Shown here: one piece after another, positions 1 to 60,721 of the stretch
Position numbering within the stretch: the stretch's first letter is position 1
How the letters are laid out: the number at the start of each line of letters is the position of its first letter
Assembly: GCA_019038625.1 (NCBI GenBank)
Contig: JAHOYU010000077.1
Location: 3,703 to 67,702 of the forward strand
Origin: Candidatus Latescibacterota bacterium
GTDB lineage: Bacteria; Krumholzibacteriota; Krumholzibacteriia; Krumholzibacteriales; Krumholzibacteriaceae
Length of the DNA: 64,000 nucleotides
Direction: 5' to 3'
Notes under the pieces: generated by a model
Seen by the model: the letters and a program-made list of their open reading frames with translations, nothing else
Database searches by the model: none
Told to the model about the DNA's origin: nothing
Program-made: the position numbers and the translations under genes

Positions 1-228
1 CAGGGGAATGTGACTGCGCTCGAACAACGTCCCTACCGTCACCGTAAACGGCTTGCGACAGTGGCCGCACTTGTACAGTCCAGGGCGTGTAGACTTACCC
101 TCAAGCTTGTAAGCCTTGTCCATACCGCCGCAATGTGGGCAGACAACGCCATCAGGCCAGCGAACCTTTTCAAGGTACTCACGTGCCGCCTGTTCATCAT
201 GGAAGTATTGCGCGGAAAGTTGGCTCAT
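1..228 (-). CDS. IS1595-family (ISXO2-like) transposase, N-terminal 76 aa only; the gene runs off the left edge
   Basis: Reverse-complement translation from ATG at 228 gives MSQLSAQYFHDEQAAREYLEKVRWPDGVVCPHCGGMDKAYKLEGKSTRPGLYKCGHCRKPFTVTVGTLFERSHIPL. It has the zinc-ribbon CPHCGG...CGHC and the TVTVGT motif typical of the N-terminus of IS1595-family transposases. AAGGAG RBS at 236-241. It is absent from the ORF track because no stop codon lies within the window. Confidence 0.7.
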   Translation of the reverse strand, partial: MSQLSAQYFHDEQAAREYLEKVRWPDGVVCPHCGGMDKAYKLEGKSTRPGLYKCGHCRKPFTVTVGTLFERSHIPL

Positions 229-231
229 CGG

Positions 232-837
232 TTACTCCTTGAAAGGATTACCATCGGGTGATTTGCCTTTTAAGCATGCAACTGAATTCCAAAGATATTC
301 GCGGTCTTTATCTGAAAGATTTTGATCGCATTTCAGGGTATCAACTATCTGCCCTTGGCGATCCCAAATCTCTTTGAGTAGGGGAATTCTTCCTTCAAGT
401 ATTTTTAGTCGCTCAAGATTAAGTTGATCCAATTGGGCTTTAAGCTGTTTCTCTTGGGTTTCAAGTTGTTGGATTTGAATAGATAAATGCTTTTTATCAG
501 TTTTAAGCCGTTCTGACTTGATGGTGAGTTCATCATAGCGAATTTGCAGAGTGTCCTTTTCGGATTGAATTTGACTTAAGCGATCTTCACTTTCCTGTTT
601 GGCTTTTAAATCGAGGGCTTTATGAAATTGATGAAGGCGGATAAGAGCGGCGACAACTATGATTGTCAACGCGATGTATGCCAAAGTCGATTGGCTAAAA
701 TATATCAACGCCGCTACAATGGAATTGCCAATTCCAAGAATGAAATAAAGGCCATGTTTAAACTTGTCCGGGATGATACCGGTCTGAGCTTTTGGGCTGG
801 GGTTACTATTTGCAATCTTTTCCATGTGTTGCTCCAT
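232..837 (-). CDS. membrane-anchored coiled-coil protein (two predicted TM helices, then a long heptad-rich region)
   Basis: 201-aa ORF. Hydrophobic segments LYFILGIGNSIVAALIYF and IALTIIVVAALI are followed by a K/E/Q/L-rich coiled coil. Promoter-like element just upstream at 843-900. A diverged truncated copy lies at 57353-57652. The stop overlaps the RBS of the transposase gene. Confidence 0.55.
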   Translation of the reverse strand: MEQHMEKIANSNPSPKAQTGIIPDKFKHGLYFILGIGNSIVAALIYFSQSTLAYIALTIIVVAALIRLHQFHKALDLKAKQESEDRLSQIQSEKDTLQIRYDELTIKSERLKTDKKHLSIQIQQLETQEKQLKAQLDQLNLERLKILEGRIPLLKEIWDRQGQIVDTLKCDQNLSDKDREYLWNSVACLKGKSPDGNPFKE

Positions 838-842
838 AGCTT

Positions 843-900
843 GAAAGGTCTATTTCCAATATACATCCTTTGTATCTGGTATGTCAAGTATATAATCGCC
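843..900 (-). promoter_or_regulatory. sigma70-like promoter (TTGACA, 18-nt spacer, TATATT) reading leftward; copy 1 of a repeated element that begins GGCGATTATATACTTGAC
   Basis: The reverse complement is ggcgattatatacttgacataccagatacaaaggatgtatattggaaatagacctttcaa. It is nearly identical to 57279-57338, and its first 23 nt recur inverted at 58047-58064. Confidence 0.5.
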
Positions 901-1055
901 TTAGAAAGTGGGCTTTGAACAACGGCTATCAAGAGGGGCTTAGTCTGGACAGGATTAACCCCGATGGAAACTACGAGCCGAGTAATTGTCAATGGCTGAC
1001 TCGCGGTGAAAACACAAGCAAAATGCACCGGGAAAAACACCGAGTTCAGGTTTAA
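901..1055 (+). pseudogene. HNH homing-endonuclease C-terminal remnant; its 5' part is replaced by the repeat element
   Basis: ORF 870-1055 encodes ...NGYQEGLSLDRINPDGNYEPSNCQWLTRGENTSKMH, which resembles the C-terminal half of HNH_3 endonucleases with the catalytic His replaced. The N-terminal 10 codons of the ORF lie inside the repeated promoter element, so the gene appears to have been interrupted. Confidence 0.45.
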
Positions 1056-2056: not shown

Positions 2057-2103
2057 ATAAGCAGACACCCTGGCGTGAGCGAAAGATGCAGACAGCGTTC
2101 CGA

Positions 2104-2176
2104 ATTGCTATAGCTCAATTGGTAGAGCTTCTGACTATGGATCAGACTGTTACCGGTTCAAATCCGGTTAGCGAAT
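2104..2176 (+). tRNA. tRNA gene, 73 nt, no encoded CCA; anticodon loop CUAUGGA, identity uncertain
   Basis: Cloverleaf read by hand: acceptor ATTGCTA/TAGCGAA with six of seven pairs and an A1-A72 mismatch; D-arm GCTC-AATTGGTA-GAGC; anticodon stem TCTGA/TCAGA; 5-nt variable loop; T-arm ACCGG-TTCAAAT-CCGGT. Confidence 0.5.
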
Positions 2177-2195
2177 ATTGAGAGACTTGTAATCT

Positions 2196-14497: not shown

Positions 14498-14742
14498 GTG
14501 ATTGTGCGCACCAACTCCGAGGGCAATATTGGCGGAGGATGATTGATGGCAGAGAGGCCGCACTAATCAACCTGTCGCATCTTACTCTAAACATTAGTAA
14601 GGAGTTTGGGTTCCTCGGCGCGTTTATTGCACTCCATCGGTACAAGGGTAGGTTGGAGCCGCACCTGAGTATATATCTGTGGAAGTGGCACCTATCAATT
14701 GGTTGGAGATGGATAGAAAACAACCTCAAGGAGAGCGTATGA
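14494..14742 (+). CDS. hypothetical protein (82 aa)
   Basis: ATGA overlap with the upstream stop. Confidence 0.35.
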   Translation: MSDCAHQLRGQYWRRMIDGREAALINLSHLTLNISKEFGFLGAFIALHRYKGRLEPHLSIYLWKWHLSIGWRWIENNLKESV

Positions 14743-15227
14743 AGCGCGTAGCGGTGACAAGAACCGTGGATGGGGATCAGGGCACATTCGGGAAGATCGT
14801 GGCTGGTGGACGCTCCTGGTGTTCCCTGGAGCTACCCGGAAGGGGCAATAAGCCCTACGTTTCGCGCATACCGGCGGGAATTTATACCTGTCAGTGGACG
14901 TATAGCACTGCTTTTGAGCGCGACCTGTATATCGTTCTCAACGTTCCGGGCCGTAGCGGGATAATGCTGCACTCAGCCAATTGGGCTGGCAACAGGGATA
15001 AGAACTACTATTCGCAGTTATTGGGCTGTATCGCTCCCGGCCTTGGTTATGGGCAGATGATTCCCACTGCCAACGAACAGCATTGGCAACCGCAGTGGGC
15101 CGTCACGGACAGCAGGGATGCCCTGAAAGAGTTTGAAGATTACCTTGACCGTAAAGAATTTGAGCTTCATGTTATAGATGCAATTTCAGATGTATCTTAT
15201 GAATGGGCGCTTGCGCCCGCAGCATGA
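14739..15227 (+). CDS. putative cell-wall hydrolase (candidate endolysin) with a His...Cys motif reminiscent of the YkuD/L,D-transpeptidase fold
   Basis: LHSANWAGN...(18 aa)...LLGCIAPG resembles the H...(S/T)xGC(I/V) catalytic signature. It lies directly upstream of a holin-like gene. RBS CAAGGAGAGCGTATG. Assignment is tentative. Confidence 0.3.
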   Translation: MKRVAVTRTVDGDQGTFGKIVAGGRSWCSLELPGRGNKPYVSRIPAGIYTCQWTYSTAFERDLYIVLNVPGRSGIMLHSANWAGNRDKNYYSQLLGCIAPGLGYGQMIPTANEQHWQPQWAVTDSRDALKEFEDYLDRKEFELHVIDAISDVSYEWALAPAA

Positions 15228-30690: not shown

Positions 30691-31173
30691 TCACACCTTC
30701 TTGATAAGTAGATGCTCTAATGAAGTATAACCATTTCGGGCATAGTAGCGCAATAAGACCCGCTCTCTGGGGTTGTCATGCGTTCCCATAATACAGAATT
30801 GCGCTCCTGCGGCCTTTGCCGTAGACTCAAACTGTTCCAATAGCCAGTGTTCAACGCCGCTACCTCGATGATCTTTCGCAACATACCACCAAGCTTCCTG
30901 GCAAACCGACTGCTCTCTGCACAGCAGCCACGGACTGATAGTACCGGCAATCGTACCCACCACCTCATTATTATCACCAATGGCGAGTATCAGGATGCCA
31001 AAGTCATTGTTAATCAAAAGCTTTATAGTCTCAAGCAGGCTGAACGCATTGGCATCAAGCCCCTTATCCTTCAGCGTAGTCTCATTGTAGAACGCCGCAC
31101 CAAGACCAATCAGTTGCGTCAGATACGGCTCAACCATCCCATCGCTGACGATATTTATAATCCGGTAGTTCAT
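30691..31173 (-). CDS. GNAT-family N-acetyltransferase
   Basis: Motif A-like ...AKDHRGSGVEHWLLEQFESTAKAAG (R-x-x-G-x-G) and overall GNAT pattern. Embedded between tail genes. Confidence 0.6.
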   Translation of the reverse strand: MNYRIINIVSDGMVEPYLTQLIGLGAAFYNETTLKDKGLDANAFSLLETIKLLINNDFGILILAIGDNNEVVGTIAGTISPWLLCREQSVCQEAWWYVAKDHRGSGVEHWLLEQFESTAKAAGAQFCIMGTHDNPRERVLLRYYARNGYTSLEHLLIKKV

Positions 31174-49423: not shown

Positions 49424-49706
49424 CCATGATTAAACGCTCACGTTCCTTAAGCGCGGCAATGGCATCTGCGAATGACCGGTGTATGTGATCCTCATGTATG
49501 CGTAAACCACGATTGTTGCAGCCATCCAGGCGCAACATAATCGCATCAAAGATTTGAGTTGGAATATCAAGCGTTTTTGTCCAACGTATTTTAGCAGCAT
49601 CTATTTTAAGTTCTATGGGCCGACCTGCCCTTTGTAAGCCTTGCCCGCTTATTCCTACTATTTCATTGTAACTGCCCTTGGGCCATCCATCATCGTATTT
49701 CGGCAT
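49398..49706 (-). CDS. hypothetical protein (102 aa)
   Basis: ORF between the terminase and portal genes. Confidence 0.4.
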   Translation of the reverse strand: MPKYDDGWPKGSYNEIVGISGQGLQRAGRPIELKIDAAKIRWTKTLDIPTQIFDAIMLRLDGCNNRGLRIHEDHIHRSFADAIAALKERERLIMVEWKKKGR

Positions 49707-49710
49707 CTTT

Positions 49711-49998
49711 TCAGCCTTTCTGAGTTAGCAGCTTTTGTGCGATCTCGTTGGCTGGTACGGTTAAGTCACCGTCTCTTAGTATCTTATCTAAAAGTATACC
49801 GGGTAGGCTACCGCACATTTCTACCGTACCAACATTGGGGCTATTCTTTTTGAGAGTCGTCTTATAAAACACCACCGCCACACTATCACCTGCAAGATGT
49901 ATCTTAAAATCCCCACTTGCGTAACTGGCGAATGGCTTTATTGTATGCTGCGAATTTGGTAATCTAAACGCTTCTGGTTTAATCTTCTTCCAGGCCAT
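49711..49998 (-). CDS. hypothetical protein (95 aa)
   Basis: ORF. Confidence 0.4.
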   Translation of the reverse strand: MAWKKIKPEAFRLPNSQHTIKPFASYASGDFKIHLAGDSVAVVFYKTTLKKNSPNVGTVEMCGSLPGILLDKILRDGDLTVPANEIAQKLLTQKG

Positions 49999-50065
49999 CG
50001 TCTAACTCTCCTTCACGATTTCAAGCCAGTCTTTGAACTTAAACAGCAGTTGGCGGCTGCAAGCA

Positions 50066-50383
50066 TTAGACGGTTATCTTGTCAACGGTCTTTCCCTGTT
50101 CGTTCATCACGTAGACTGTTGCCGGTGGTTCGATGATAAACGACTTCATGCTATCCAGATCAAGTCTAAGCGCGAAACTCGGCTTTACCTTAACATCACC
50201 ACAAAAGGTTGTAGCCCCCGCTTCTTCTGGGGTACTGGCCCTAACGTAGTTTTGTATATTCTGGTGATTCACACAAGTTGCTTCTCGCATTTTAGTCTCC
50301 ACCAGTTTCTGAGCCGGTGGATTACTACCAGCTTCTGCTGTGTTCTCCACTTCTTGATACAACTCGATCTTGATCGTAAACAT
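50066..50383 (-). CDS. hypothetical protein (105 aa)
   Basis: AAGGAG RBS before ATG at 50383. Confidence 0.45.
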   Translation of the reverse strand: MFTIKIELYQEVENTAEAGSNPPAQKLVETKMREATCVNHQNIQNYVRASTPEEAGATTFCGDVKVKPSFALRLDLDSMKSFIIEPPATVYVMNEQGKTVDKITV

Positions 50384-50568
50384 CGCGCTACTCCTTCTTC
50401 TTCTGGATACTGCGTTGTGCTTCCGCCAACTGCTGCTTCTTCTTCAAATATATATCACGCATATCCTTATGGTCAACCTGTCTCGCTCCCATGTTGATCG
50501 CCGCGTCAATCTTGCTGTTCATGGCATCAAAATGAACGCTGTTTTTACCCGTGTTTTGGAGCCAAGTC

Positions 50569-50724
50569 TGACGCAGACCTATCTTAAGGCCGAACTCAAT
50601 TTGTGTCTATCGCCACGCCTCTGTCCGACATGCTCACTCGGTTTGACCTTTACCCATTTGAGATAGCATTGCATGGTTGACATCGGGCAACCTATGAGTT
50701 TAGCAACTTGTCCTGTAGTATATG
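50569..50724 (-). CDS. small helix-turn-helix protein (52 aa, Xis/AlpA/MerR-like)
   Basis: MLETYTTGQVAKLIGCPMSTMQCYLKWVKVKP... with an AGGAGAAAGG RBS. Below the ORF-track size cutoff. Confidence 0.4.
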
Positions 50725-50933
50725 TTTCAAGCATTTGCCTTTCTCCTGCGCCTCTCGCGCCTTCTCAATGTCCTGCGCCACTTTCGGGAACTCCGCTCTT
50801 CCTCTTCCCCGCTTGACAAAGCCAATAGAATGCTGTATTATTAAACTCAACGGATGCAAAGCCCGTTCGCAAGCGGCTGACACAGGGTCTCGATCCGGCA
50901 AGCGCTCCACTCAAAAGGTGGGGCGTTTTGCTT

Positions 50934-51164
50934 TTAGCCTTTTCCCACACAATCCTCTTTCTCTGCATTCTTGATTATCTCCATCGTGCAGGCCAAGCAG
51001 AATTTCCTGACAAGTTCATTTGATAACCGCGCCGGTTGCCCGCAATCGCATACGCCTATGATTGGAAAGGAAGTCTGGTATTCAATGCTCATCTTGTTAC
51101 CCTCTTTATCAATGCCCATGACCACTATTCGGTTCTGATGACAACTCTCTTTGTTCTCCGCCAT
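50934..51164 (-). CDS. small Cys-rich (zinc-ribbon-like) protein
   Basis: ...CDCGQPARLSNELVRKFCLAC... Confidence 0.35.
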   Translation of the reverse strand: MAENKESCHQNRIVVMGIDKEGNKMSIEYQTSFPIIGVCDCGQPARLSNELVRKFCLACTMEIIKNAEKEDCVGKG

Positions 51165-51493
51165 AGGTAGGTAGCCAAGTCACGCCAATATGGGCACGCC
51201 CCCTCTGGAATGCACTCATCGGCTGGCTTAAATCCATAGGGCTTCCATGCTCCGCGCCGATCTTTGTAGCACTTAAACCAGCGCCACGCTACGCTGGTTC
51301 TAAAAATATGATTCCACCACCCTACACGATACCATAACCAGAATAGCGGAACAACAGGAGCTATTGCATATCTTAAGTCGGGCCAATTGCCCAGAGTCGC
51401 CCATCCTACGTTTACCCACGGGAATCTCATCGGCCCTAAATCGTCAACATACTCACGGCTCACCGTTATCGTGCTCTGAAATGCTGGAAACAT
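51125..51493 (-). CDS. Trp-rich hypothetical protein (122 aa)
   Basis: ORF immediately downstream of the terminase gene. Confidence 0.4.
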   Translation of the reverse strand: MFPAFQSTITVSREYVDDLGPMRFPWVNVGWATLGNWPDLRYAIAPVVPLFWLWYRVGWWNHIFRTSVAWRWFKCYKDRRGAWKPYGFKPADECIPEGACPYWRDLATYLWRRTKRVVIRTE

Positions 51494-51673
51494 CAGAACC
51501 CCCTTAGTGTTCCGGATGAACGTAACCGCAGATCAAACCCTTTACCTGAATGTATTTCCATCTCCACGGATGTTCTCGCTGCCATTTCGCAAAACGCATT
51601 TCAGCAAGTCCAATCTCAAAGGCTTGCTTGTCGCACATCTCCCGAAAGCTACCCATATAGTTATTGCTCATAA

Positions 51674-54229
51674 TCAGTACCCACTTATAGGGCTTTTGCC
51701 CTTGTCGCGTTGACGGTGGAGTGCCGCATGTCGCCTGTGTTGCAGGCTATCCTTGTAAGTTTTGTTCTCGCGCCTCTGGTATTCAACCGGCTTTATCCTG
51801 AAAGCAAAGGTCTGGGCCAGCGCATCTCCAAAGTCCGGGCTGTCAAGTTCACGCGCCTTCATATGCTCCTTGCGCTCCAACTGTATCTTATCCGCAACGC
51901 TAAAGCCATACTCGATAGATGTCAGGTCTGTTTCAAGGTAATCGTACTCGCGCTGCTCCAGGCCACTCAGGTCTGCGGTCTTCAGCCATTCGCGCATGTT
52001 TCCCCACATCTCGGCCCGCTTATTGAAGTATTTCTTCTTGCTTGACCGGCTACCCGCCACAACGGAGAACCAGCGGCACTTAAGCTGCCTGCCACGATCA
52101 ATGACACCTGTCCCCGGCCCTGTCTCATCGATAAACACGGCATCGGCACCGTATTCGTCTTCAGCGTCCTGCACCAAGCTAACAATTGTCATGTTATCAA
52201 GCTCTCGATACTCGCGTATCTCCAGTATTCTAAGTCCCTGCCTTATAACAATAACAGTCCTGTCGTCACCGAAACGGGCTACATCAACGCCTATCACAAT
52301 AGGCGAATCCTTGTAGAGATCGTAATCAAGCTTCCGCTTACGGGCCTCTTCCACCCAATCAAGGGCAATAAACTGCATTGAACTTGCGCGCGGAAACTCA
52401 CCCTTCACCCTGACCCTCACAAAATCGCTGTCTTCTCCGTAATCGTCTATCCACTCCTGGATAAGCTGTTTCTCGGCCTTTTTCGCCGTCCTGCTGTCCA
52501 CCTTGAAAGTCACCCAACGCTTGCGGAACTTCGTCCAGCAGGCTCTAAAGCGGCCCACGTTTCTTGTCGGGTTGCCGAAACATATCCAGATAGAGCCGGT
52601 TGTGGTCATGGCACCGCTGGCCACCTCCCATATCTTGTCATCGATAGCACTCGCCTCATCGAAGATCATCAGCACGTTTTCTTCGTGTGTACCGGCAAAC
52701 GCCTCTGTATTCTGCTTGCTCCAGGGTGCGGCGGTCATAAAGTGCGTGGTAGGGTGTTCGATTGCGCGGAACTTGGTGGCAGTCCATTCAAACCAATGCT
52801 GGTTGATAACCATCTGGTGCCACTTCGATAGCTCCATCCATGTCTTGTCGGTCAACTGCATCTTGGTATTGGCGGTCACAACGGCCTTGATCGGTGTCCG
52901 CGTGGACATGAACCAGAGGATAATCCAGGCTACAAGGGCCGTGTTGTGTGTGACGATGAAATCATTTGCCAGATATAATTGATCCTCAGCCTCAACAGTT
53001 ATACACATGCATTCTGCTTCACCGGCAAGCTCCACGCGATCAATAAACCTTTCCAGATATCGCTTCTGTGATGTCGGCCTTATTCTCTCTGCCTTGCGCT
53101 TAATGTAGCACGGAGTAAATCCGTCTGGAAACGTCAAGGAACACAAGTAGGCTCCGTTATGCGTCTTACTATGCAGTCTTGCCTTCCCGCCGATGGAACG
53201 AGTTAGCCATATCACGTCTTCGATGAGCAACTTAGATACAGAGCAATATTGAGCACATCCAGTATCAGAAACATATCCATCGGTGTCCATCAGGCCACGT
53301 AGCACCTCTTCGCGCACCTCACGGAGATTATACTTATAAATATCGGGCACATGTTTTTCTCGCGCACCACACTTGTCAACGCCGAGTCGCTCCAACGCTG
53401 GTCGCAAATGTCCCACATTAAATACCTTTGCCTTCGTCTCTCGCTTGCTTTGCCCCTCGGTGAGCCTATAGCGCGCCGAAGCGATGCGCTCAAACACCTC
53501 AGCGTCCATATTTGTAATACGGCTTGTATTTCGGCAACCATCCCCCAGCCATGCGCCCAGTGTATACGGATCAACATTGACCCACTGATATGGATATTCT
53601 ACCGCACCATGACGCGGTATTTGGAATCTTCGTGCGCGCCCCTGCCCGTTTTTCCGCCGCGGCCCAGTTTCGGCGATCTCAGCAGTGCTCTTTGTTTCCC
53701 AATCTTTTCTGCGCTCTTTCACAAGCCATAAGTGCTCGGCGCACGTTAAGGTGCTGCTTTCATCGTCAAATATCACTCGATATATTGGCTTGATGCCCTG
53801 TGGGTGAATTTGTGCAATTCTTGTAGGCTTTCCGTCCCTACCAAAGACGGTATCTCCGGGCTTCAAATCTCCCCAGCGCCGTACACCGGTTGGCGTGTCC
53901 AGCTTCATATCAGTTGGATGCGCTTTTCCTGCCCCGTGGCCGCTGCTGACGGCCATCTGGATAGCGCGTGTTATGTTCCCATCTTTGCGCTTGAGCAGTT
54001 CTTCACGCAGCAGTCCAAGAAACTTGGTCTGCCAGATATCCGGCCCTGTCTCTTTTTCGAGAATAGTGCCCGATCTGCCCCAGGGAAGCGCCCACATGAC
54101 AAAGCCGTAAGGGTCATCCTTGAAGCTCATTATCTTCAAGGTCAACTCTTTCTCGTTCAACTCCGCCTTTGCCGCGCCATCGTGGTGCGATCTGCCTGTA
54201 GATTGGGCATGTGCTGTGGCCTCACTCAT
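51674..54229 (-). CDS. terL: terminase large subunit interrupted by a 327-aa intein
   Basis: Walker A is split: ...VSSGHGAGK | intein | TALVAWIILWF..., which reconstitutes GHGAGKT. Downstream terminase ATPase and nuclease pattern (...TTTGSIWICFGNPTRNVGRFRACW...). The extein is about 524 aa. Confidence 0.8.
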   Translation of the reverse strand: MSEATAHAQSTGRSHHDGAAKAELNEKELTLKIMSFKDDPYGFVMWALPWGRSGTILEKETGPDIWQTKFLGLLREELLKRKDGNITRAIQMAVSSGHGAGKAHPTDMKLDTPTGVRRWGDLKPGDTVFGRDGKPTRIAQIHPQGIKPIYRVIFDDESSTLTCAEHLWLVKERRKDWETKSTAEIAETGPRRKNGQGRARRFQIPRHGAVEYPYQWVNVDPYTLGAWLGDGCRNTSRITNMDAEVFERIASARYRLTEGQSKRETKAKVFNVGHLRPALERLGVDKCGAREKHVPDIYKYNLREVREEVLRGLMDTDGYVSDTGCAQYCSVSKLLIEDVIWLTRSIGGKARLHSKTHNGAYLCSLTFPDGFTPCYIKRKAERIRPTSQKRYLERFIDRVELAGEAECMCITVEAEDQLYLANDFIVTHNTALVAWIILWFMSTRTPIKAVVTANTKMQLTDKTWMELSKWHQMVINQHWFEWTATKFRAIEHPTTHFMTAAPWSKQNTEAFAGTHEENVLMIFDEASAIDDKIWEVASGAMTTTGSIWICFGNPTRNVGRFRACWTKFRKRWVTFKVDSRTAKKAEKQLIQEWIDDYGEDSDFVRVRVKGEFPRASSMQFIALDWVEEARKRKLDYDLYKDSPIVIGVDVARFGDDRTVIVIRQGLRILEIREYRELDNMTIVSLVQDAEDEYGADAVFIDETGPGTGVIDRGRQLKCRWFSVVAGSRSSKKKYFNKRAEMWGNMREWLKTADLSGLEQREYDYLETDLTSIEYGFSVADKIQLERKEHMKARELDSPDFGDALAQTFAFRIKPVEYQRRENKTYKDSLQHRRHAALHRQRDKGKSPISGY
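52943..53923 (-). mobile_element. intein with a LAGLIDADG homing-endonuclease domain, inserted after the Walker A lysine of the terminase
   Basis: Begins AHPTDMKLDTPTG... (Ala at position 1). Block B-like TCAEHLW. Two LAGLIDADG motifs, LGAWLGDGC and LRGLMDTDGYV. Ends ...FIVTHN, followed by the +1 Thr of the extein. Confidence 0.7.
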
Positions 54230-54278: not shown

Positions 54279-54623
54279 TCACACCTTCGCAGTCTGGGTT
54301 AGTTGCTCCATCAGCGCAAAGAACGTATCGGCTGCTTCCGTACCACTCTTAACCAACTGCTGTTGCCGGGGTGGAACGCCCCACATACCGCTGAACTTGC
54401 AGATGAACAGCACCCCCTGGCGCTGGCAGGAGAACGTACCCCGTGAGGCCATAATCTCCATGCTCTTGAATATTTCGCTCTCGCCCTTACTCATCGGCTT
54501 CTCCATTTCATAAACTACTCCCGTAGTGATTTGATGAATCCGCAAAGCGCAAAGATGGACTACAGCAATGAGTTGATATTGGGATGCTTTCCAGGGCTTA
54601 AAAATTCCTCTATTGCATAGCAC
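54279..54623 (-). CDS. hypothetical protein (the start is probably the internal MEKPMSKGESEIFK)
   Basis: Shares the KGSEIFK N-terminal motif with 54560-55036. Confidence 0.4.
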   Translation of the reverse strand: MLCNRGIFKPWKASQYQLIAVVHLCALRIHQITTGVVYEMEKPMSKGESEIFKSMEIMASRGTFSCQRQGVLFICKFSGMWGVPPRQQQLVKSGTEAADTFFALMEQLTQTAKV

Positions 54624-55036
54624 ACCATTAATTCGCTTCGCTTGCGCGTGTTGAGCATGTCGGAAAATATTGCATCACCATCCCCGCCAATTCGTATAGC
54701 CTCTCTCGTAGCCATCCACCTCTTAGCCAAAATTTCAAGGGCCAGCGCATAAACCATATCGACATAGGACTTACTAACGCCCTTGTCTATTGGGATCAAC
54801 AGCATCTCCGACACTGGAAGGGGAATATTTAGACCATTAGTAAACCGAATTCGCTCATTTTTACCAACAACATCTCCCTTTAAGCAGTCGCCACGAGTGA
54901 TTTCCACGAAACTATCTTTAGTCCAGTTGTCATCCTTGATGTCCTCTGGCTTGAATATCTCTGACCCTTTATCAGACATTTTTCTTCCTCTCTGCAAGCA
55001 TCGCATCGGCAAGTCTGTAACTCGCTTCTGCGGCAT
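54560..55036 (-). CDS. hypothetical protein (158 aa)
   Basis: MSDKGSEIFKPEDIK... is paralogous at the N-terminus to the downstream gene. Confidence 0.45.
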   Translation of the reverse strand: MPQKRVTDLPMRCLQRGRKMSDKGSEIFKPEDIKDDNWTKDSFVEITRGDCLKGDVVGKNERIRFTNGLNIPLPVSEMLLIPIDKGVSKSYVDMVYALALEILAKRWMATREAIRIGGDGDAIFSDMLNTRKRSELMVCYAIEEFLSPGKHPNINSLL

Positions 55037-55232
55037 TTCCTGGCCTAATTGCTACACCGGCTTTCTTTGCATCTTTATACAGCGAATCCATAACCCCAGC
55101 CAGAGCCTGTCCCGCAAACCAATCGCGGAGAGACATACCCTCTGGTACAAGGCTACGATTACCGTCTTTGTCGAGAGCGCACATAGGATGATTACTTGGG
55201 AACGCTGGCCCTCCATCTATTTTATCACTCAT
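54972..55232 (-). CDS. hypothetical protein (86 aa) with a GMSLRDWFAGQALAG motif
   Basis: ORF only. Confidence 0.4.
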   Translation of the reverse strand: MSDKIDGGPAFPSNHPMCALDKDGNRSLVPEGMSLRDWFAGQALAGVMDSLYKDAKKAGVAIRPGNAAEASYRLADAMLAERKKNV

Positions 55233-55729
55233 TAGTCTTCCTCCGGTATCTTGACATTGGCCAGCTTGCAGACGGCTTCAAAGACAGCCGCGCTGAGGTT
55301 AGCATCAAGTGCGAGTTGGTCCTTCCGCTTGATGCTAACCTCCTTCTCGTGCGGTTTCGATGTCCAGATGCAATGCCCATATTCGGAGATGCTTACCTGA
55401 ACATGGTTGCCGCTCTTGACCGCCAATATCTTCAGCACGTCGAAAAGAAAAGCAAGATCGGCATTTGGGTACATAAATTCACGCGGCTCTCCATCCCTCT
55501 TGCGGCTAACGCAGAAAACCGCTCCACCCCACGGCTGCATCCAGTCGCCATCTTCATTCGGTTTAGCACCCATCGCCTTCCAGAAAATCTCCCTCCAGCC
55601 TTGATCTGACCTCTTTTCTTCACTCATCAGGGTTTGCCTCCCGGCCATAATTCGCAACCAGCGGGCCATGTCTGTATCAGGTCTACCAACGGAAAAAATA
55701 CAATCACAATAAGGGCTACAACCAGCCAA
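55232..55729 (-). CDS. hypothetical protein (the start is probably the internal MSEEKRSDQGW)
   Basis: ORF only. Confidence 0.4.
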   Translation of the reverse strand: MAGCSPYCDCIFSVGRPDTDMARWLRIMAGRQTLMSEEKRSDQGWREIFWKAMGAKPNEDGDWMQPWGGAVFCVSRKRDGEPREFMYPNADLAFLFDVLKILAVKSGNHVQVSISEYGHCIWTSKPHEKEVSIKRKDQLALDANLSAAVFEAVCKLANVKIPEED

Positions 55730-55802
55730 AACATATATCTCTTCTCGCCTTGCGTCATTGGGCGCTTGAATCGCGCCGGGTTCCCATTTTTATCGAGTAT
55801 CA

Positions 55803-56078
55803 TCACCCACCCCGTAACGAGTCGAGTTGATGGTTTGTCCCGTTAGGATCGGCAAGTAGTGCAATAGCCTTATTCATCCCTATGTGGTGCATGTGAACAT
55901 TGCGATTGAAGTGCTGAAGGAGGGTGGCAATGCTCAGGAACTCCACAAAAATAACTTCATTTGTCTCCTCATCGTCCTCCACCTCCCCGGATATGTGTTC
56001 ACGCCACCGCTTAAAGGCGCTATCCATTGCTTTAAGATTCACGGTTGTCTCCTTAAAAAACTCTTTCCGACTAATCAC
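55803..56078 (-). CDS. hypothetical protein (91 aa)
   Basis: ORF only. Confidence 0.35.
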   Translation of the reverse strand: MISRKEFFKETTVNLKAMDSAFKRWREHISGEVEDDEETNEVIFVEFLSIATLLQHFNRNVHMHHIGMNKAIALLADPNGTNHQLDSLRGG

Positions 56079-56616
56079 AATTCACCCCCCGCTCAAGAGC
56101 CTCACGCCAGCAGCTAATGAAGTAGGCCGCTGCCTTCCGGTTCTTCATCGCCTCAAGGATATCGTTCTCACTCCCACCAGGCGGTATGTACGAGTTTTGC
56201 CCGCTGATTTCATTGTGGTTGCCGTACAGGGCGGCGGCAAGGCCGAAGCTGGTGAAAGCATAGTAACCGGGGCCGACATTGACGTTCATATCCATGCGCA
56301 TCAGGTCGTAGCAGCGCAGCAGAACGTCTATCCATACCTTCTTCAACTCCGGTAGCCTTCTGTATTGCTCGTAGGGAATGAGGATAAGCGCCTCAAGATC
56401 GGTGAGAAACTGGCTGACGCGGCCAAGGGCTTCCGCTCCCATACCCTTGTGTGCGTCATCAGGGAGATCAAACGCGGCCTTCACGCCATCAAGGGTTTCT
56501 GAACGCCACCAAAATTCGGCGGCATCTCTGGGTATCGTGCCTATCTGGCTTGTATATCGATCTACAACCTCTATCGCTTGCTCACGTGATGTTTCTGGTG
56601 CTCCTACGATTTCCAT
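56071..56616 (-). CDS. hypothetical protein (181 aa)
   Basis: ORF only. Confidence 0.45.
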   Translation of the reverse strand: MEIVGAPETSREQAIEVVDRYTSQIGTIPRDAAEFWWRSETLDGVKAAFDLPDDAHKGMGAEALGRVSQFLTDLEALILIPYEQYRRLPELKKVWIDVLLRCYDLMRMDMNVNVGPGYYAFTSFGLAAALYGNHNEISGQNSYIPPGGSENDILEAMKNRKAAAYFISCWREALERGVNCD

Positions 56617-56641
56617 TGTCTGTTCTCCCCTTTAGGAGTGT

Positions 56642-56851
56642 TTAGCCTATCAGAACCTTCCAGATCAGCAGCACAAGGCAATAGCCGACACAGGCTACCG
56701 CCACCACGGCGAGAATGAACTTCGCCAGCACCCACCAGAGGACATCCATGACCAGCCGCTTGAGGTCAAAGTGAATGGGGTACATCATGCTCACCGCCTC
56801 TTCCTGAATAGCGCCCGTATCTGGTTGGCACTTTCGGCGGCAACGAGACAA
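56642..56851 (-). CDS. small membrane protein (69 aa)
   Basis: VLWWVLAKFILAVVAVACVGYCLVLLIWKV transmembrane helix. Confidence 0.4.
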   Translation of the reverse strand: MSRCRRKCQPDTGAIQEEAVSMMYPIHFDLKRLVMDVLWWVLAKFILAVVAVACVGYCLVLLIWKVLIG

Positions 56852-57144
56852 AATCCGGCATCCTGTAGCCGGTATTGTACCGTCCGCAGTACATTATCCC
56901 GGTTGAAGTAGACCTCAGTCCTGAGTTCCATAATATCGTTGCGAAGTTTCAGGATATCGACTTGGTTTGCATCGGGCTGAAGAGAACCGCCACAGGAGAG
57001 AAGCGCAGCCCAGCCAACGAACACTCCGGCCAGAATCCAGACGCAGACAGCGGTGGTTATCAAGCCTGACTTTATATTGGCGGTCACAACAGCCTCCCAA
57101 GGAAGATACCCACCATAATGCAGACAACCCAGATTGCGGGCCAT
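56791..57144 (-). CDS. membrane protein (117 aa)
   Basis: LITTAVCVWILAGVFVGWAALLS transmembrane helix. Confidence 0.4.
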   Translation of the reverse strand: MARNLGCLHYGGYLPWEAVVTANIKSGLITTAVCVWILAGVFVGWAALLSCGGSLQPDANQVDILKLRNDIMELRTEVYFNRDNVLRTVQYRLQDAGFCLVAAESANQIRALFRKRR

Positions 57145-57278
57145 ATCCAGAACGGAACCCTTCTTACTTCTCGGTATTCTTTCACATCAACCTCCCTCTG
57201 GGGTTATTTGTAGTGCCTGTAACCATCACAAGCGCCGTTGTTGTGCATAGACCGTTAATCTACGCACCGCTAAATATG

Positions 57279-57338
57279 GCGATTATATACTTGACATACC
57301 CGCCGCAAAGGATGTATATTGGAAATAGACCTTTCAAG
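57279..57338 (+). promoter_or_regulatory. promoter, copy 2 of the repeated element (TTGACA 57291-57296, 18-nt spacer, TATATT 57315-57320)
   Basis: 57 of 60 nt identical to the reverse complement of 843-900. Confidence 0.5.
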
Positions 57339-57352
57339 CTACGGAGTATCAA

Positions 57353-57652
57353 ATGAATGACAGTGGCAAAAAAACCACCGAGAAAGAAACCAAGAAGGCC
57401 ATCCCCCCGGATAGATTTAAATATAGCCTCTTTTTTGTTTTTGGGATAGGCCAGGTTGCTATTACAATACTTCTTAGCAATGGGAATCTCTTGTTGGGCT
57501 ACATTGTCGCCGTGATTGTTATCGCCGGAGCAATTATCCTTTTCAATGGGCATGGTAACGCACTCCTAATAAAAGTAAAACAGGAAGCCGAAGATCGTTT
57601 AAGACAAATCCAATCCGAAAAGGACACTCTGCAAATTCGCTATAAGGTTTTT
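57353..57652 (+). pseudogene. truncated, diverged copy of the 232-837 membrane coiled-coil protein gene
   Basis: Protein and DNA similarity (for example caatccgaaaaggacactctgcaaattcgctat) runs to ...EKDTLQIRY and then is lost. The ORF continues as unrelated sequence to 57862. Confidence 0.5.
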
Positions 57653-57726
57653 TTACAAGTCCCAATCCAACCCATTTCATCACATGCCCTTACTGCAAGG
57701 GCGAAGGCTGTAAAGACTGTGAAAAT

Positions 57727-58011
57727 TCAGGATTGTTTTATGATCCCCGTAAGGATTTTGAATAATCTGTCTGCAACGCGCCAAGCGGCTGCATGTTCCA
57801 AATGTAGAATTAAATTGCCGTCTTCTCTGTCATCTGGTGCTTGTAAAACACCACAGGTATGATTTGTTCGATAGGCAACGAGTTCGCCCAATTGCCATGC
57901 CCGCGCATCACCCTCATTGTCATTATGTTCATCTTGTATCAGTTCACCGTTAGCCTTAACATGCTGGAATATCTCAATTACTTGCTCAATCTCGTTCTTC
58001 TTGCCTTTCAT
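57727..58011 (-). CDS. hypothetical protein (94 aa) inside the MITE-like element, driven by the inverted repeat copy at 58047-58064
   Basis: RBS GGGGGATAAAACGATG. Overlaps the 3' end of the truncated plus-strand ORF convergently. Confidence 0.4.
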   Translation of the reverse strand: MKGKKNEIEQVIEIFQHVKANGELIQDEHNDNEGDARAWQLGELVAYRTNHTCGVLQAPDDREDGNLILHLEHAAAWRVADRLFKILTGIIKQS

Positions 58012-58075
58012 CGTTTTATCCCCCTGTAGCGTTGAAGGCGAGGTACGTCAAGTATATAATCGCCATTAATTTTGA

Positions 58076-58492
58076 CTACTCCCCAAGGTGCGCCCTGATC
58101 TCTGCCTGCATCTTGGCCTTGCTGGTAGCGCCCTTGCTCAACTCGCAGCCAACTTCCACGGCCCTGGCCTTGAGTCTCTTGCCCGTTGTCTCTGTGGGAT
58201 CAACGTCTTCAGGCTGTACTTCTACCGGCTCCGCCTTCACCGCATAGATTTCAGCGGCGGCAAGCACAACCTCCACCGGCCAGCCGTTCAGGCGGTGATA
58301 CCGCGTTTCCCGGCCCTCTGCGAGTGTTGACCGCTCAACATGCAGACACTGCACGGCGTTGTCCATGAAAACCAGATGACAGAGTACGCCAGGGCACCCC
58401 ACGCGCTCAAACGAGGCATCGGGGGTCACGATATCACTATCGTGGAACGGCCTGAAGTCTACGGGTTCATCCAATCGCTTAAACATCTTCAA
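58076..58492 (-). CDS. hypothetical protein (138 aa)
   Basis: ORF only. Confidence 0.4.
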   Translation of the reverse strand: MKMFKRLDEPVDFRPFHDSDIVTPDASFERVGCPGVLCHLVFMDNAVQCLHVERSTLAEGRETRYHRLNGWPVEVVLAAAEIYAVKAEPVEVQPEDVDPTETTGKRLKARAVEVGCELSKGATSKAKMQAEIRAHLGE

Positions 58493-58516
58493 GCTCCTGT
58501 TAAGGTAATGGGTTAG

Positions 58517-58837
58517 TTAGGGCAGGGTATAGCCGAGCGTTGTGCTCTTACTGCGCGTATTGGCTATCTTTCGTATCCGACCATTAATACCAACCACGTG
58601 ATACTCCCGCCAGATTACGCCAGAGGTGGTTACAGTAGAACCCAGAGGCTTCACCTCGACCAACCGTCCGATAATCCTTTCGCTCTCACCAATGGGCCAG
58701 TTCTTTCCGCGATTGACCGCGTATAGCTTCCCGCTTCGGAGACCGGCAAAGAACGGCTGATGCATTACCTCATGCCCACTGCGTACCCTCGTTTCCCACC
58801 AGACACGCAAGCGCTGTAGCGGTATCGAGATTGTCAT
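58517..58837 (-). CDS. hypothetical protein (106 aa)
   Basis: ORF only. Confidence 0.4.
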   Translation of the reverse strand: MTISIPLQRLRVWWETRVRSGHEVMHQPFFAGLRSGKLYAVNRGKNWPIGESERIIGRLVEVKPLGSTVTTSGVIWREYHVVGINGRIRKIANTRSKSTTLGYTLP

Positions 58838-59097
58838 TTAATGCGCTCCCATTCCATATGAATCGTTCTGATTCTTTGGAGGGTAAGCTGGCAGTTGTCG
58901 CCCCATGTACCAACTGCTACCGGCTGCTCATTGGGATATATTGTATCACAAACGACAAGGCCGTACACTTTGCCGTTGGCTGTCGTGTCGCACGCCAGAT
59001 ACCTCTCTATCGAACGACTTGACAGCTTGGTGGTGGTGATAACGCACCACAATATAATTATGGCGACAATCGTTAATGGTACAACACAATTTTTCAT
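58834..59097 (-). CDS. small membrane-anchored or secreted protein (87 aa)
   Basis: N-terminal hydrophobic VVPLTIVAIIILWCVITTT. Confidence 0.4.
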   Translation of the reverse strand: MKNCVVPLTIVAIIILWCVITTTKLSSRSIERYLACDTTANGKVYGLVVCDTIYPNEQPVAVGTWGDNCQLTLQRIRTIHMEWERIK

Positions 59098-59137
59098 AAT
59101 CCCTCCAATGCTATATTATCGGCAATTATAAACTATT

Positions 59138-59178
59138 TGTCAATTGCCCTTGACATCCTGTAATAAATTGTTTATAGT
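59138..59178 (+). promoter_or_regulatory. sigma70 promoter (TTGACA, 17-nt spacer, TATAGT) with an overlapping palindrome TGTCAATTGCCCTTGACA (candidate operator)
   Basis: -35 at 59150-59155, -10 at 59173-59178. Divergent intergenic region between the minus-strand block and the plus-strand small genes. Confidence 0.5.
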
Positions 59179-59220: not shown

Positions 59221-59376
59221 ATGAGCACCAATAGAAATAAAACGCTTGATAAGCTTGCCAGAATAAGGAGCCTGCTGCTGCTTGTTTTAGCCAGCGGAGA
59301 TTCCGGTATCACAACGGATGAGGCATATAGGCTACAGGACTGTCGTGACACAATCGCACGGATAATCGGCAGCTAA
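59221..59376 (+). CDS. small protein (51 aa), possible regulator
   Basis: GGCAGGAGGACGGCAATG RBS. Below the ORF-track cutoff. Confidence 0.4.
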   Translation: MSTNRNKTLDKLARIRSLLLLVLASGDSGITTDEAYRLQDCRDTIARIIGS

Positions 59377-59445
59377 CCACCCCTGCCGGGCGGCGCTTGT
59401 ACAGGCCGCCCGGCTTTCTCTTCACCCTACGCCAAGGAGCAGCAA

Positions 59446-59577
59446 ATGAACAGCAACCAGCGCCCCGGCATCACGCTTTGCTTCCCCCCTGAAGAGCCGG
59501 TCGAAGAGCTTGACTTCTCTGACGCTGCCGAGTACAGGCGGGTGGACGCATTAGAACTCGACCCGGACGAGGATTAA
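59446..59577 (+). CDS. small acidic protein (43 aa)
   Basis: AAGGAG RBS 7 nt before ATG. Confidence 0.35.
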   Translation: MNSNQRPGITLCFPPEEPVEELDFSDAAEYRRVDALELDPDED

Positions 59578-59578
59578 C

Positions 59579-59809
59579 GTGGCCGCCTGTAAACATAAGC
59601 GCCAGAAGTTTCTTGGCATCCAGGACTTCGGGCCTGACCTCCCCAAGCTCCGGCTCTACAACTGCCTTGATTGCAAGACAACGCTGGCAAGGCCCACAAG
59701 GAGAAAAACTATCGTGCATTACCCTGACGCTCAATTCTTCTTCACAATTCTATCCTGGTTTGCTATGGCCCTCGCCGTAGGCTGGCTGATAGAAACGTTC
59801 CGCAAATGA
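59579..59809 (+). CDS. small protein with a CxxC...CxxC zinc finger and a C-terminal TM helix (76 aa)
   Basis: GTG start directly after the upstream stop. CKHKRQ...CLDCKTT and FFFTILSWFAMALAVGWLI. Confidence 0.4.
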   Translation: MAACKHKRQKFLGIQDFGPDLPKLRLYNCLDCKTTLARPTRRKTIVHYPDAQFFFTILSWFAMALAVGWLIETFRK

Positions 59810-59811
59810 TG

Positions 59812-59838
59812 GACGGCCCGCCCCGGCGGGCCTTTTTA
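59812..59838 (+). terminator. rho-independent terminator
   Basis: GGCCCGCC, loop CCGG, CGGGCC, followed by TTTTTATT. Confidence 0.6.
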
Positions 59839-60091
59839 TTGCTATCAACGACCCACTTGCCCTCGAAAAAGAATCGACTTGGCTTGTATAAAAGCCTTTC
59901 TCTGCGTCCACAATCAGCGCAGACTCTGACCGGGGTAACGGGGTGCGGCGAGGGGAGTTTATCGTATGGCCCCCAATTATGCCACCTGATTTTACACAAC
60001 AATGGCTTTTTTCTCTCCGTGTCCATATTTCCTCCTTACCCTACTATCTAAAGTTCACGATCTCCCCGCACAGAGCGGCTATGGAAGCCGT

Positions 60092-60721
60092 TTAAGGCCC
60101 GTCAGCGGAATTGTCGTTTAATAGCTCTATACTGCCCTTACCACGTATTTCTTCCAGTTTCTCGTCAGCCTCCTTCATCCTCTCGACCAAGTCTGAAGTT
60201 GTCCGGATTTCCCGCTTATCAACATACATGGCAAAGTAGCGGCCCAGGAGTTCCAAGCACTTCTCCTTCGAGATGAACGTTAGCTCCATCCGGCTTCTTG
60301 TGATGTCTGAGCCGTCTTTCTGTGATATTGTTGTCACGGTCTGCTTAATCGACTTAACAGCGCTCTTGGATTCCCTGCTGATCTCAGAGCTTGGCCTGAT
60401 CGTTACGTTACCCTCGCCATCCCAGATAGCAAAGTCCTCGATGTTGAACGTGGCTCCCCTGGCAAGTTCTTGCACAACGTCAGCGGCCTCGATGTGCATC
60501 TCTTTCATCTTGGCGGCGAGAATCATCTCTACTCTGGCGACTATAATAGGATTGGTTAGCAACTTGGAGGCTTCTACGCCAGCGGATTTACGAGCAAGGG
60601 CGGGCTTAAGATCAATGACAGACTGCCTGCCGTTGAATTGGTTAATAACGTACTGATGGCAGAACTGTTCCTGATAGGCGTTTAAGCCGTATTTGTTGAC
60701 TATGGATTTTTTACCCGCCAT
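60092..60721 (-). CDS. terS: terminase small subunit
   Basis: N-terminal ...YGLNAYQEQFCHQYVINQFNGRQSVIDLKPALARKSAGVEASKLLTNPIIVARVEMIL matches the phage TerS HTH pattern (L...QE.FC..Y...N...A...AGY...A..LL..P.I..RI). It lies 6 kb away from the large terminase gene on the same strand. Confidence 0.65.
   Translation of the reverse strand: MAGKKSIVNKYGLNAYQEQFCHQYVINQFNGRQSVIDLKPALARKSAGVEASKLLTNPIIVARVEMILAAKMKEMHIEAADVVQELARGATFNIEDFAIWDGEGNVTIRPSSEISRESKSAVKSIKQTVTTISQKDGSDITRSRMELTFISKEKCLELLGRYFAMYVDKREIRTTSDLVERMKEADEKLEEIRGKGSIELLNDNSADGP

Follow-up and report, generated by a model that had tools for sequence, protein, structure and literature searches.

The window analysed here, a stretch of 64 kb from contig JAHOYU010000077.1 (positions 3,703 to 67,702, forward strand), comprises most of one tailed-phage genome. 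Its plus-strand arm (1-16.7 kb) codes for RecE-like, RecT-like and DnaC-like proteins and a DNA methyltransferase, its minus-strand arm (16.7-64 kb) for the small and large terminase subunits (TerS and TerL), portal, major head protein, adaptor, head-closure proteins and a DNA-ejection protein. The region of interest is the interval between the two terminase genes, in the following called the island. It is bounded upstream by TerS (60092-60721, minus strand, 209 amino acids, aa), which was recognised by Pfam Terminase_2 (6.8e-19; 69.3 bits against a cutoff of 26.1) and phrog_51 (1.2e-20), and downstream by TerL (51674-54229, minus strand, 851 aa including an intein), which matched several PHROGs of terminase large subunits. 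The two genes share one strand, TerS lying 5.9 kb upstream of TerL, and the stop codon of TerS is separated from the start codon of TerL by 5,862 nt, which confirmed the distance of about 6 kb in the original prediction made from the sequence. About 19 open reading frames (ORFs) were present in this gap, 15 on the minus strand (g87a, g87b, g106, g136, g94, g33, g98, g48, g181, g91, g59, g131, g86, g139 and g71) and four on the plus strand (p51, p43, p76 and p169). The gene set consists of the calls on Logan contigs, of g33 and g59, each of which overlaps a stop or start codon of a neighbour, and of the uncalled plus-strand ORF p76; p169 is located in a stretch without Logan contig coverage. 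An island of about 4.8 kb with twelve or more small genes on one strand had been proposed for positions 54279-59100. Fourteen minus-strand ORFs of 33-181 aa were found there, 12 of them independently called in Logan contigs of SRR14477300, and this part of the proposal stood; extent and uniform orientation had to be revised, since the island reaches to 60091 and includes the four plus-strand ORFs. The kilobase adjoining TerS adds g87a together with p51, p43 and p76. Ribosome-binding sites of the GGAG type precede most island ORFs, and the AT skew reverses its sign exactly at the plus-strand ORFs. The GC content varied more in the island (standard deviation 0.052) than in the structural arm (0.035), with the lowest values in a transposon-like element described below (0.427) and in g139 (0.443).

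The spacing of the terminase genes was compared in about 180 loci with relatives of the C-terminal half of TerL (35-59% identity), taken from viral, metagenome and genome collections. In these loci TerS was recognised by an iterated hidden Markov model built from TerS homologues; some loci represent the same contig in two collections. In 55 loci TerS preceded TerL in the same orientation, at spacings from overlap to 1,003 nt, and about seven loci had 0.3-1.0 kb between the two genes. The 5.9 kb of the window were by far the largest spacing seen among the loci compared. Judged from these loci, tight linkage of TerS and TerL is the rule in this TerL clade, with a junction that occasionally takes a small insertion. 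Because TerS overlaps, abuts or lies within about 1 kb of TerL in the 55 related loci, the gap is lineage-specific inserted DNA. Relatives of TerL in the genome collection had an identity of 52% or less, and single queries with TerS, g181, g94 and ORF1, a gene at the left edge of the window, retrieved no close relatives from IMG/VR. The island DNA had no match in GenBank phages and E. coli genomes, and none in Rfam.

Close relatives were present in three sets of short marine-sediment metagenome contigs, L083, L163 with L164 and L165, and L172. TerL of L083 was 88-92% identical on the amino acid level, TerS of L172 84%, and the TerS orthologues ranged from 68 to 84%. Upstream of TerL, L083 carries homologues of g136 (79%), g98 (69%), g181 (81%) and g71 (85%) as well as a longer protein with the g86 domain (43% identical). 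The contigs L163, L164 and L165 have g106 (54%), g136 (82%), g98 (71%), a counterpart of g48, g181 (83%) and g71 (80%). In L172 it is not TerL that comes after TerS but a set of unrelated small genes, one of which is reverse-oriented. About seven genes, g106, g136, g33, g98, g48, g181 and g71, form a lineage-restricted scaffold, and the DNA in the slots between them changes from relative to relative. The slot between g136 and g33 comprises 863 nt in the window, including a repeat-flanked element, 254 unrelated nt in L163 and about 720 nt with other small ORFs in L083. Between g181 and g71 (54560-56078, minus strand) the window has five genes (g91, g59, g131, g86 and g139), L163 none and L083 two different ones. 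The slot between g71 and TerL measures 50 nt in the window and is occupied by at least three small genes in L163 and by four others (59, 67, 105 and 89 aa) in L083. The cargo ORFs of the relatives had no match to a family of known function. These comparisons indicate an island position that is stable within the lineage, with a conserved scaffold and a fast-changing cargo. The ratio of nonsynonymous to synonymous substitution rates (dN/dS) was 0.19-0.62 for the six island ORFs with orthologues in the relatives, and these six are therefore regarded as real genes; by the same measure the scaffold genes appear to be under purifying selection.

A scar of island growth was visible at the start of g139. 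BLASTN aligned L163 3075-3124 and L083 4193-4242 to window positions 54999-54952 (minus strand), which places a recombination junction at 54952-54999: in the window, g139 starts with what in L163 and L083 are the ribosome-binding site and first ~10 codons of g71, and a diverged second copy is retained at the window's own g71. Two paralogs with a common KGSEIFK N-terminus had been postulated here. A paralogy of g139 and g71 was ruled out, as BLASTP gave no alignment even at E<=100 and the shared part is limited to the duplicated ribosome-binding site and the first ~10 codons. The start of g139 is instead a scar left where recombination at a gene start inserted DNA.

A second trace is a 787-bp element (57278-58064, GC 0.427) that resembles a miniature inverted-repeat transposable element (MITE) of the IS1595 family. 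Its terminal inverted repeats (57278-57300 and 58042-58064) are part of a 25-nt inverted repeat (57276-57300 and 58042-58066) that is complementary at 24 of 25 positions and was never seen in shuffled sequence. A third copy of this repeat lies at 878-902, and the stretch 57275-57643 is an inverted copy of 535-903 with 69% identity. The 18 terminal bases of the element are identical to the copy end at 883-900 and to the ends found beside IS1595-family transposase genes in IMG/VR. The 18-mer, GTCAAGTATATAATCGCC, had exact matches in 14 IMG/VR contigs whose flanking sequences are unrelated. At least seven of these encode a protein of ~300 aa that begins 46-50 nt inside the repeat, and plasmid homologues of this protein are annotated as IS1595 family transposase. 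Inverted partner repeats bound elements of 40 bp to 3.4 kb in at least nine contigs, among them elements of 40 bp (L198, two ends back to back), 375 bp (L203) and 3.4 kb (L200) in the IMG/VR set L191-L204, whose viral contigs are unrelated. Phage genomes may thus share a circulating lineage of IS1595-family elements whose cargo varies. Two other readings of the 25-nt repeat, a promoter or operator of the phage and the termini of an invertible segment, were dropped, as the same 18-mer bounds IS1595-family transposase genes. The promoter-like TTGACA within the repeat is probably the element's own promoter.

The sole similarity to a transposase in the window was found at its left edge, where positions 228 to 1 code for the first 76 residues of an IS1595-type transposase (58% identity, E = 6e-23) before the gene runs off the window. 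These residues are part of an IS1595-family element (1-900, minus strand) with the end repeat at 878-900, ORF1 at 837-232 and the transposase from 228. ORF1 (201 aa, two membrane helices and a coiled coil) is directly upstream of the transposase at a distance of 3 nt, and the insertion sequence is therefore taken to carry an extra gene. A short ORF just outside the insertion sequence end (870-1055, plus strand) has a C-terminal part (LSLDRINPDGNYEPSNCQWLTRGEN) that resembles, by eye, the tail of a phage HNH-type homing endonuclease and is probably a truncated remnant of such an enzyme. The insertion sequence at 1-900 looks like the parent of the island element. The latter is a non-autonomous derivative with both ends, a truncated copy of ORF1 (p169), the gene g94 and no transposase. 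The first ~97 aa of p169 (57353-57862, plus strand), including two membrane helices, are similar to ORF1 (232-837); beyond them follows unrelated sequence that overlaps g94. The acidic g94 (57727-58011, minus strand, 94 aa, called in Logan contig L001, ribosome-binding site aggggga) is cargo of the element and had no family match; a weak counterpart (34% identity) is encoded in L083 downstream of TerL. Neither L163 nor L083 has the element between g136 and g33, and copies of the repeat are missing from both loci. A MITE-like element at this place had already been suggested by the original prediction, and the repeats shared with an IS1595-family insertion sequence, the lack of a transposase inside and the empty slot of the relatives bear it out.

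Elements of the ISNwi1 group end in GGnnATTAT and produce direct repeats of 8 bp. The inverted ends of the island element, GGCGATTATATACTTGAC, begin with GGnnATTAT as in this group. IS1595-family insertion sequences with passenger genes and MITE derivatives are said to have been described by Siguier and co-workers in 2009, a paper cited in PMC3281130. The island element departs from these in being large for a MITE (787 bp), in containing two ORFs and in lacking an 8-bp duplication. One non-autonomous, putatively mobile copy was seen in the window. MPME1 and MPME2 are ultra-small transposons of about 440 bp in phage genomes. The island element resembles these mycobacteriophage elements in its shortness, in its inverted-repeat ends, in the lack of a full transposase and in its presence or absence at a site between close relatives, yet it differs in transposon family, size and host group.

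The proteins of the island were compared with Pfam and PHROGs for all ORFs, and g86 was the sole ORF with a match (phrog_2201, function unknown, 1.9e-17). The view that several of the ORFs lack recognisable motifs was borne out, and the near-complete lack of matches is not the picture of an interval filled with conserved phage housekeeping families. Homology and structure searches had been recommended for every ORF; sequence searches covered all of them, structure models were made for g136 and g181, and none matched a known function. Searches of the Protein Data Bank (PDB) by sequence with g86, g131, g136, g139, g94, g106 and p51 gave nothing meaningful; matches of p51 to designed repeat proteins were rejected as repeat artefacts without a significant aligned stretch. 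PADLOC, run on ten proteins, had no match for island ORFs and gave coiled-coil noise on ORF1 alone. Instead of the two single-pass membrane proteins noted originally, seven ORFs are predicted to be membrane-bound or secreted, p76, g87b, p169, g98, g48 and g59 by hydropathy and g33 by eye.

Next to TerS lies g87a (59763-60026, minus strand, 87 aa), a basic protein with four cysteines and a possible zinc ribbon, called in L001 behind the ribosome-binding site aaggagga. Its 3' end overlaps p76 convergently by 47 nt. It had no Pfam or PHROGs match and is not conserved in the relative L172. The second protein of this length, g87b (58834-59097, minus strand, called in L001), has five cysteines and a predicted N-terminal membrane helix or signal and no family match. 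The strongly basic scaffold protein g106 (58517-58837, minus strand, 106 aa, isoelectric point (pI) 11.4; dN/dS 0.46 to the 54% identical orthologue of L163) was without match in Pfam, PHROGs, PADLOC or PDB. The scaffold gene g136 (58076-58486, minus strand, 136 aa) has orthologues of 79-82% identity (dN/dS 0.31-0.34) and only four representatives among 1.84 billion proteins. Its AlphaFold2 model (pLDDT 85.9, the predicted local distance difference test) consists of an N-terminal beta-plus-helix domain and a C-terminal helix-extended-helix (HeH) motif that is SAP/HeH/LEM-like. Foldseek against PDB and BFVD found nothing below E = 0.1, the N-terminal domain having no fold relative there, and the C-terminus gave weak matches to SAP-, LEM- and Rho-N-like proteins.

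On the other side of the element follows g33 (57084-57185, minus strand), a mini-ORF of 33 aa (MKEYREVRRVPFWIWPAIWVVCIMVGIFLGRLL) that was read from the sequence without a Logan gene call and appears hydrophobic by eye. Its stop codon overlaps the start of g98 (GTGA), and L163 and L083 preserve both the region of its start and its ribosome-binding site. The scaffold protein g98 (56791-57087, minus strand, 98 aa; orthologues 68-71% identical, dN/dS 0.19-0.32) has a signal-like helix, also predicted as membrane helix, up to a lipobox-like LLSC, followed by a heptad-rich helix; LLSCG is kept in the orthologues. With the lipobox read by eye, g98 is a putative small lipoprotein. The single-pass membrane protein g48 (56642-56788, minus strand, 48 aa, predicted helix, called in L002) has a 44-aa counterpart in L163 (dN/dS 0.62). 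The acidic, all-helical g181 (56071-56616, minus strand, 181 aa, dN/dS 0.20-0.24), a scaffold gene, is a near-orphan: among 5.8 billion proteins two hits were obtained, the protein itself and one 83% identical relative. With a pLDDT of 59 its AlphaFold2 model is weak, and a Foldseek comparison with PDB gave no meaningful fold match.

The variable block comprises, on the minus strand, g91 (55803-56078), g59 (55627-55806, with a membrane helix and without Logan call), g131 (55232-55627), g86 (54972-55232) and g139 (54560-54979); g131 and g139 had no match in PDB or the phage databases. Homologues of g86 were present in 27 GenBank phage records of phages of Proteobacteria, all annotated as hypothetical; in Paracoccus phage Shpa the homologue comes after ERF, an endonuclease and a single-stranded DNA-binding protein. 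The last scaffold gene, g71 (54279-54494, minus strand, 71 aa; orthologues 80-85% identical, dN/dS 0.24-0.27), is in the window directly upstream of TerL.

Most minus-strand island genes are without a promoter of their own. A back-to-back pair of sigma-70-like promoters was predicted at 59115-59178, each with 11 of 12 consensus positions: the minus-strand promoter (59143 to 59115, TTGACA-17-GATAAT) points toward g87b, the plus-strand promoter (59150-59178, TTGACA-17-TATAGT) toward p51. A third one for p169 (57291-57320, also 11 of 12 positions) lies inside the end of the insertion sequence-derived element. Five sites with at least 11 of 12 positions of the sigma-70 consensus, which may not be that of the host, occur in the 64 kb, and three of these are in the island (57291, plus; 59150, plus; 59143, minus). 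Shuffled sequences had on average 0.06 such sites in the island, and none of 200 shuffles reached three. The block of the minus-strand promoter (59143 to 59115) is conserved in L163 at 34 of 35 positions between flanks that both differ. The plus-strand promoter precedes a cassette (59221-59809, plus strand) of the small, basic p51 (59221-59376), the very acidic p43 (59446-59577, pI 4.1) and p76 (59579-59809), which has a CxxC motif and a predicted C-terminal membrane helix; p51 and p43 were called in L001, p76 was not. A terminator-like hairpin (59385-59414, plus strand) follows p51 and is succeeded by the U-rich run UUUCUCUU; with -25.4 kcal/mol (z = -3.95) it was not equalled by any of 200 shuffles. 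A second, intrinsic-terminator-like hairpin (59815-59832, plus strand) with seven G-C pairs, followed by TTTTTATT, closes the p43-p76 unit.

We propose, with a probability of about 0.65, that the TerS-TerL interval is a lineage-specific, fast-changing accessory region of the "moron" type that has grown at a normally tight junction. That the island is accessory, as the original prediction held, is well supported because it is absent from 55 relatives of TerL, differs in gene content among relatives with 84-92% identity in TerL or TerS, consists in part of near-orphan genes and has received a MITE. A moron appears as an insertion when an operon is compared across related phages, which corresponds to at most ~1 kb in the 55 loci against 5,862 nt here, and it varies in length and gene set among related phages, as is seen in at least three slots when the window is set beside L083 and L163, and at the TerS-proximal end in L172. 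Morons in general are known from lambdoid phages such as HK97 and HK022. The closest likeness is the "ant moron" (immI region) in the late operon of P22-like phages, described together with a quoted definition of the moron; it varies in length and gene set, changes much faster than the rest of the operon and has independently transcribed, oppositely oriented small genes, and one of its members carries an insertion sequence (PMC2629481). The island shares with it the variable-length block in a late operon, the phage-specific gene sets and the small genes on the opposite strand. It differs in its site (between TerS and TerL instead of between genes 16 and 9), in the absence of ant, arc, mnt or sieA homologues and in the interleaving of about seven conserved scaffold genes with the cargo, and its expression is predicted from sequence.

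Two routes of island growth are visible, a recombination at a gene start that duplicated the ribosome-binding site and ten codons of g71 before g139, and an insertion of the 787-bp MITE-like element derived from an IS1595-family insertion sequence. Most island genes would be read through as part of the late operon, to judge from their tight packing and several overlapping stop and start codons, and transcription toward TerL may be raised by the internal promoter at 59143 to 59115, which is conserved in L163. The p51 and p43-p76 cassette and p169 would use their own sigma-70-like promoters and end at the predicted hairpin terminators. The island might serve to act on the host or on competing phages and not in virion assembly, e.g., through cell-envelope or superinfection-exclusion proteins, in view of seven predicted membrane or secreted proteins among the ~19 ORFs, a lipoprotein-like protein and an HeH-like DNA-binding motif.

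Several points weigh against this proposal. The relatives are short metagenome contigs, and TerS and TerL of one relative were never on the same contig. The scaffold genes are conserved and co-oriented with TerL and could be lineage-specific housekeeping genes. A clean 8-bp target duplication of the MITE-like element is absent, its flanks CTAAATAT and ATTAATTT agreeing at five of eight positions. Any expression from a prophage would depend on a temperate life style. Promoters and terminators are predicted from consensus rules that may not be those of the host; the contig is labelled as a Bacteroidales metagenome-assembled genome, a group in which the sigma-70 -35/-10 rules would not hold. The window has ribosome-binding sites of the GGAG type and predicted promoters of the -35/-10 type, and g86, the only widespread island gene, occurs in phages of Proteobacteria. 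Strong Shine-Dalgarno sites and the proteobacterial phage homologues of g86 would argue against a Bacteroidales host, and the bin assignment may not reflect the host.

The view that several of the small orphan proteins inhibit immunity or redirect the host, and that their turnover reflects an arms race, appears rather unlikely. It would fit small, fast-changing, near-orphan genes that differ between close relatives; some units with predicted promoters of their own could be expressed before the late genes, and p43 is very acidic, as is often the case in DNA-mimic inhibitors. However, no known defence or anti-defence family of Pfam, PHROGs or PADLOC was matched by the island ORFs or by the cargo ORFs of the relatives, the structure models of g136 and g181 were without match, and most of the genes belong to a late packaging operon, which is not the typically early place of takeover genes. 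The search for a recognisable anti-defence gene in the island (Pfam, including the Acb2/Tad1 model, and PHROGs for all ORFs, PADLOC for ten proteins, PDB sequence and fold comparison for a subset) found none, so that the anti-defence or host-takeover content suggested at the outset received no direct support. Clusters of phage anti-defence genes such as Acb2 or Tad1 arrays share with the island small, fast-evolving genes without known function, and a g136 homologue (43-47% identical) in L168 is part of such an array of small genes, four genes from an Acb2_Tad1_hairpin protein (PF24729); unlike those clusters, the island is in a late operon and has no recognised anti-defence gene, and the association in L168 is a single case with a distant homologue. 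L168 itself (1327-2168) has an ORF of 208 aa that resembles only the N-terminal part of TerL, followed by the 74-aa Acb2_Tad1_hairpin protein and further small genes, and may be another interrupted terminase region.

Alternatively, the scaffold genes could be a lineage-specific housekeeping module, needed for packaging, with g136 as a DNA-binding helper of TerS, or for lysis, with the small membrane proteins and the lipoprotein-like g98 in the part of holins or spanins, and the cargo alone would be dispensable. Purifying selection, a gene order conserved in three relatives, the orientation shared with TerL, overlapping stop and start codons and the SAP/HeH-like motif of g136 speak in its favor. 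Lysis cassettes adjoin the terminase genes in lambdoid phages; the cluster of membrane and lipobox ORFs resembles such cassettes, and no endolysin was recognised among the ORFs scanned, which were a part of those in the window. Yet the 55 relatives with adjacent TerS and TerL lack these genes, which implies a packaging machine without need of them, and no match to a holin, spanin, endolysin or packaging family was obtained; a reading of g33-g98-g48-g181 as lysis cassette found no supporting family match either. The DUF5675 protein (14679-15227, plus strand) and the small ORFs that follow at the end of the plus-strand arm (14.7-16.7 kb) may be the lysis region instead. We consider a housekeeping module improbable. 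An artefact, either a chimeric assembly that joined TerS and TerL regions of different genomes or a set of chance reading frames, is hardly credible. The source is a metagenome-assembled contig, and two breaks of the SRR14477300 Logan assembly, at 57335 and 57614, fall within the island; these, together with another at 843, coincide with the repeated blocks common to the insertion sequence at 535-903, as expected of a k-mer assembler. Independent contigs from other samples have island genes before TerL (L083) and small genes after TerS (L172), most shared genes have a dN/dS well under 1, and ribosome-binding sites are present at most ORFs.

Several further features were observed in the window. 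TerL contains an intein of 326 aa (52943-53920, minus strand) in its P-loop (GHGAGK | AHPT...THN | T), with Ala instead of Cys or Ser as the first residue. Its splicing domain is similar to the DnaB and gp41-1 inteins and its middle part to the LAGLIDADG endonuclease PI-SceI, with matches to intein and PI-SceI chains in PDB. The intein is absent in the 92% identical TerL of L083 and in every other relative examined. A second run of small unassigned ORFs (50-122 aa) is located between TerL and the portal gene (49424-51673, minus strand); it has a near-consensus plus-strand promoter at 50813 and differs in L083, and in L169 homologues of its 122-aa ORF and of g136 are near neighbours. A gene for a GNAT acetyltransferase (30691-31173, minus strand) is placed inside the structural gene arm, and ARAGORN predicted a tRNA-His (2103-2177, plus strand) with the anticodon ATG instead of the usual GTG.

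Variable accessory regions in late operons are already well known, and current concepts are unchanged by the island; it is unusual in its position, its size and its legible insertion history. The TerS-TerL interval is a clear natural example of phage genome growth, in which a junction closed in dozens of relatives was opened to 5.9 kb and the traces of growth can still be read: a duplicated gene start, a transposon relic with its likely parent in the same genome, and slots with a cargo that differs among close relatives. It is possible, though we regard it as doubtful, that the island serves as a reservoir of new host-interaction functions, without relatives among public proteins and with at least one new anti-defence or superinfection-exclusion protein, and that the IS1595-family element with its passenger genes is one vehicle for such genes between phage genomes. 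The parts that stand out in this respect are the p51 and p43-p76 cassette, with a small basic, a very acidic 43-aa and a membrane-anchored zinc-ribbon-like protein, and the near-orphans g136, g181 and g71. The proteins g136, g181, g71 and g98 and the cassette, which is predicted to be self-transcribed, are sensible choices for screens of genes in phage-host conflict. Both the intein of TerL and the MITE are present or absent between close relatives and can be used as markers of recent mobile-element traffic in marine-sediment phages.

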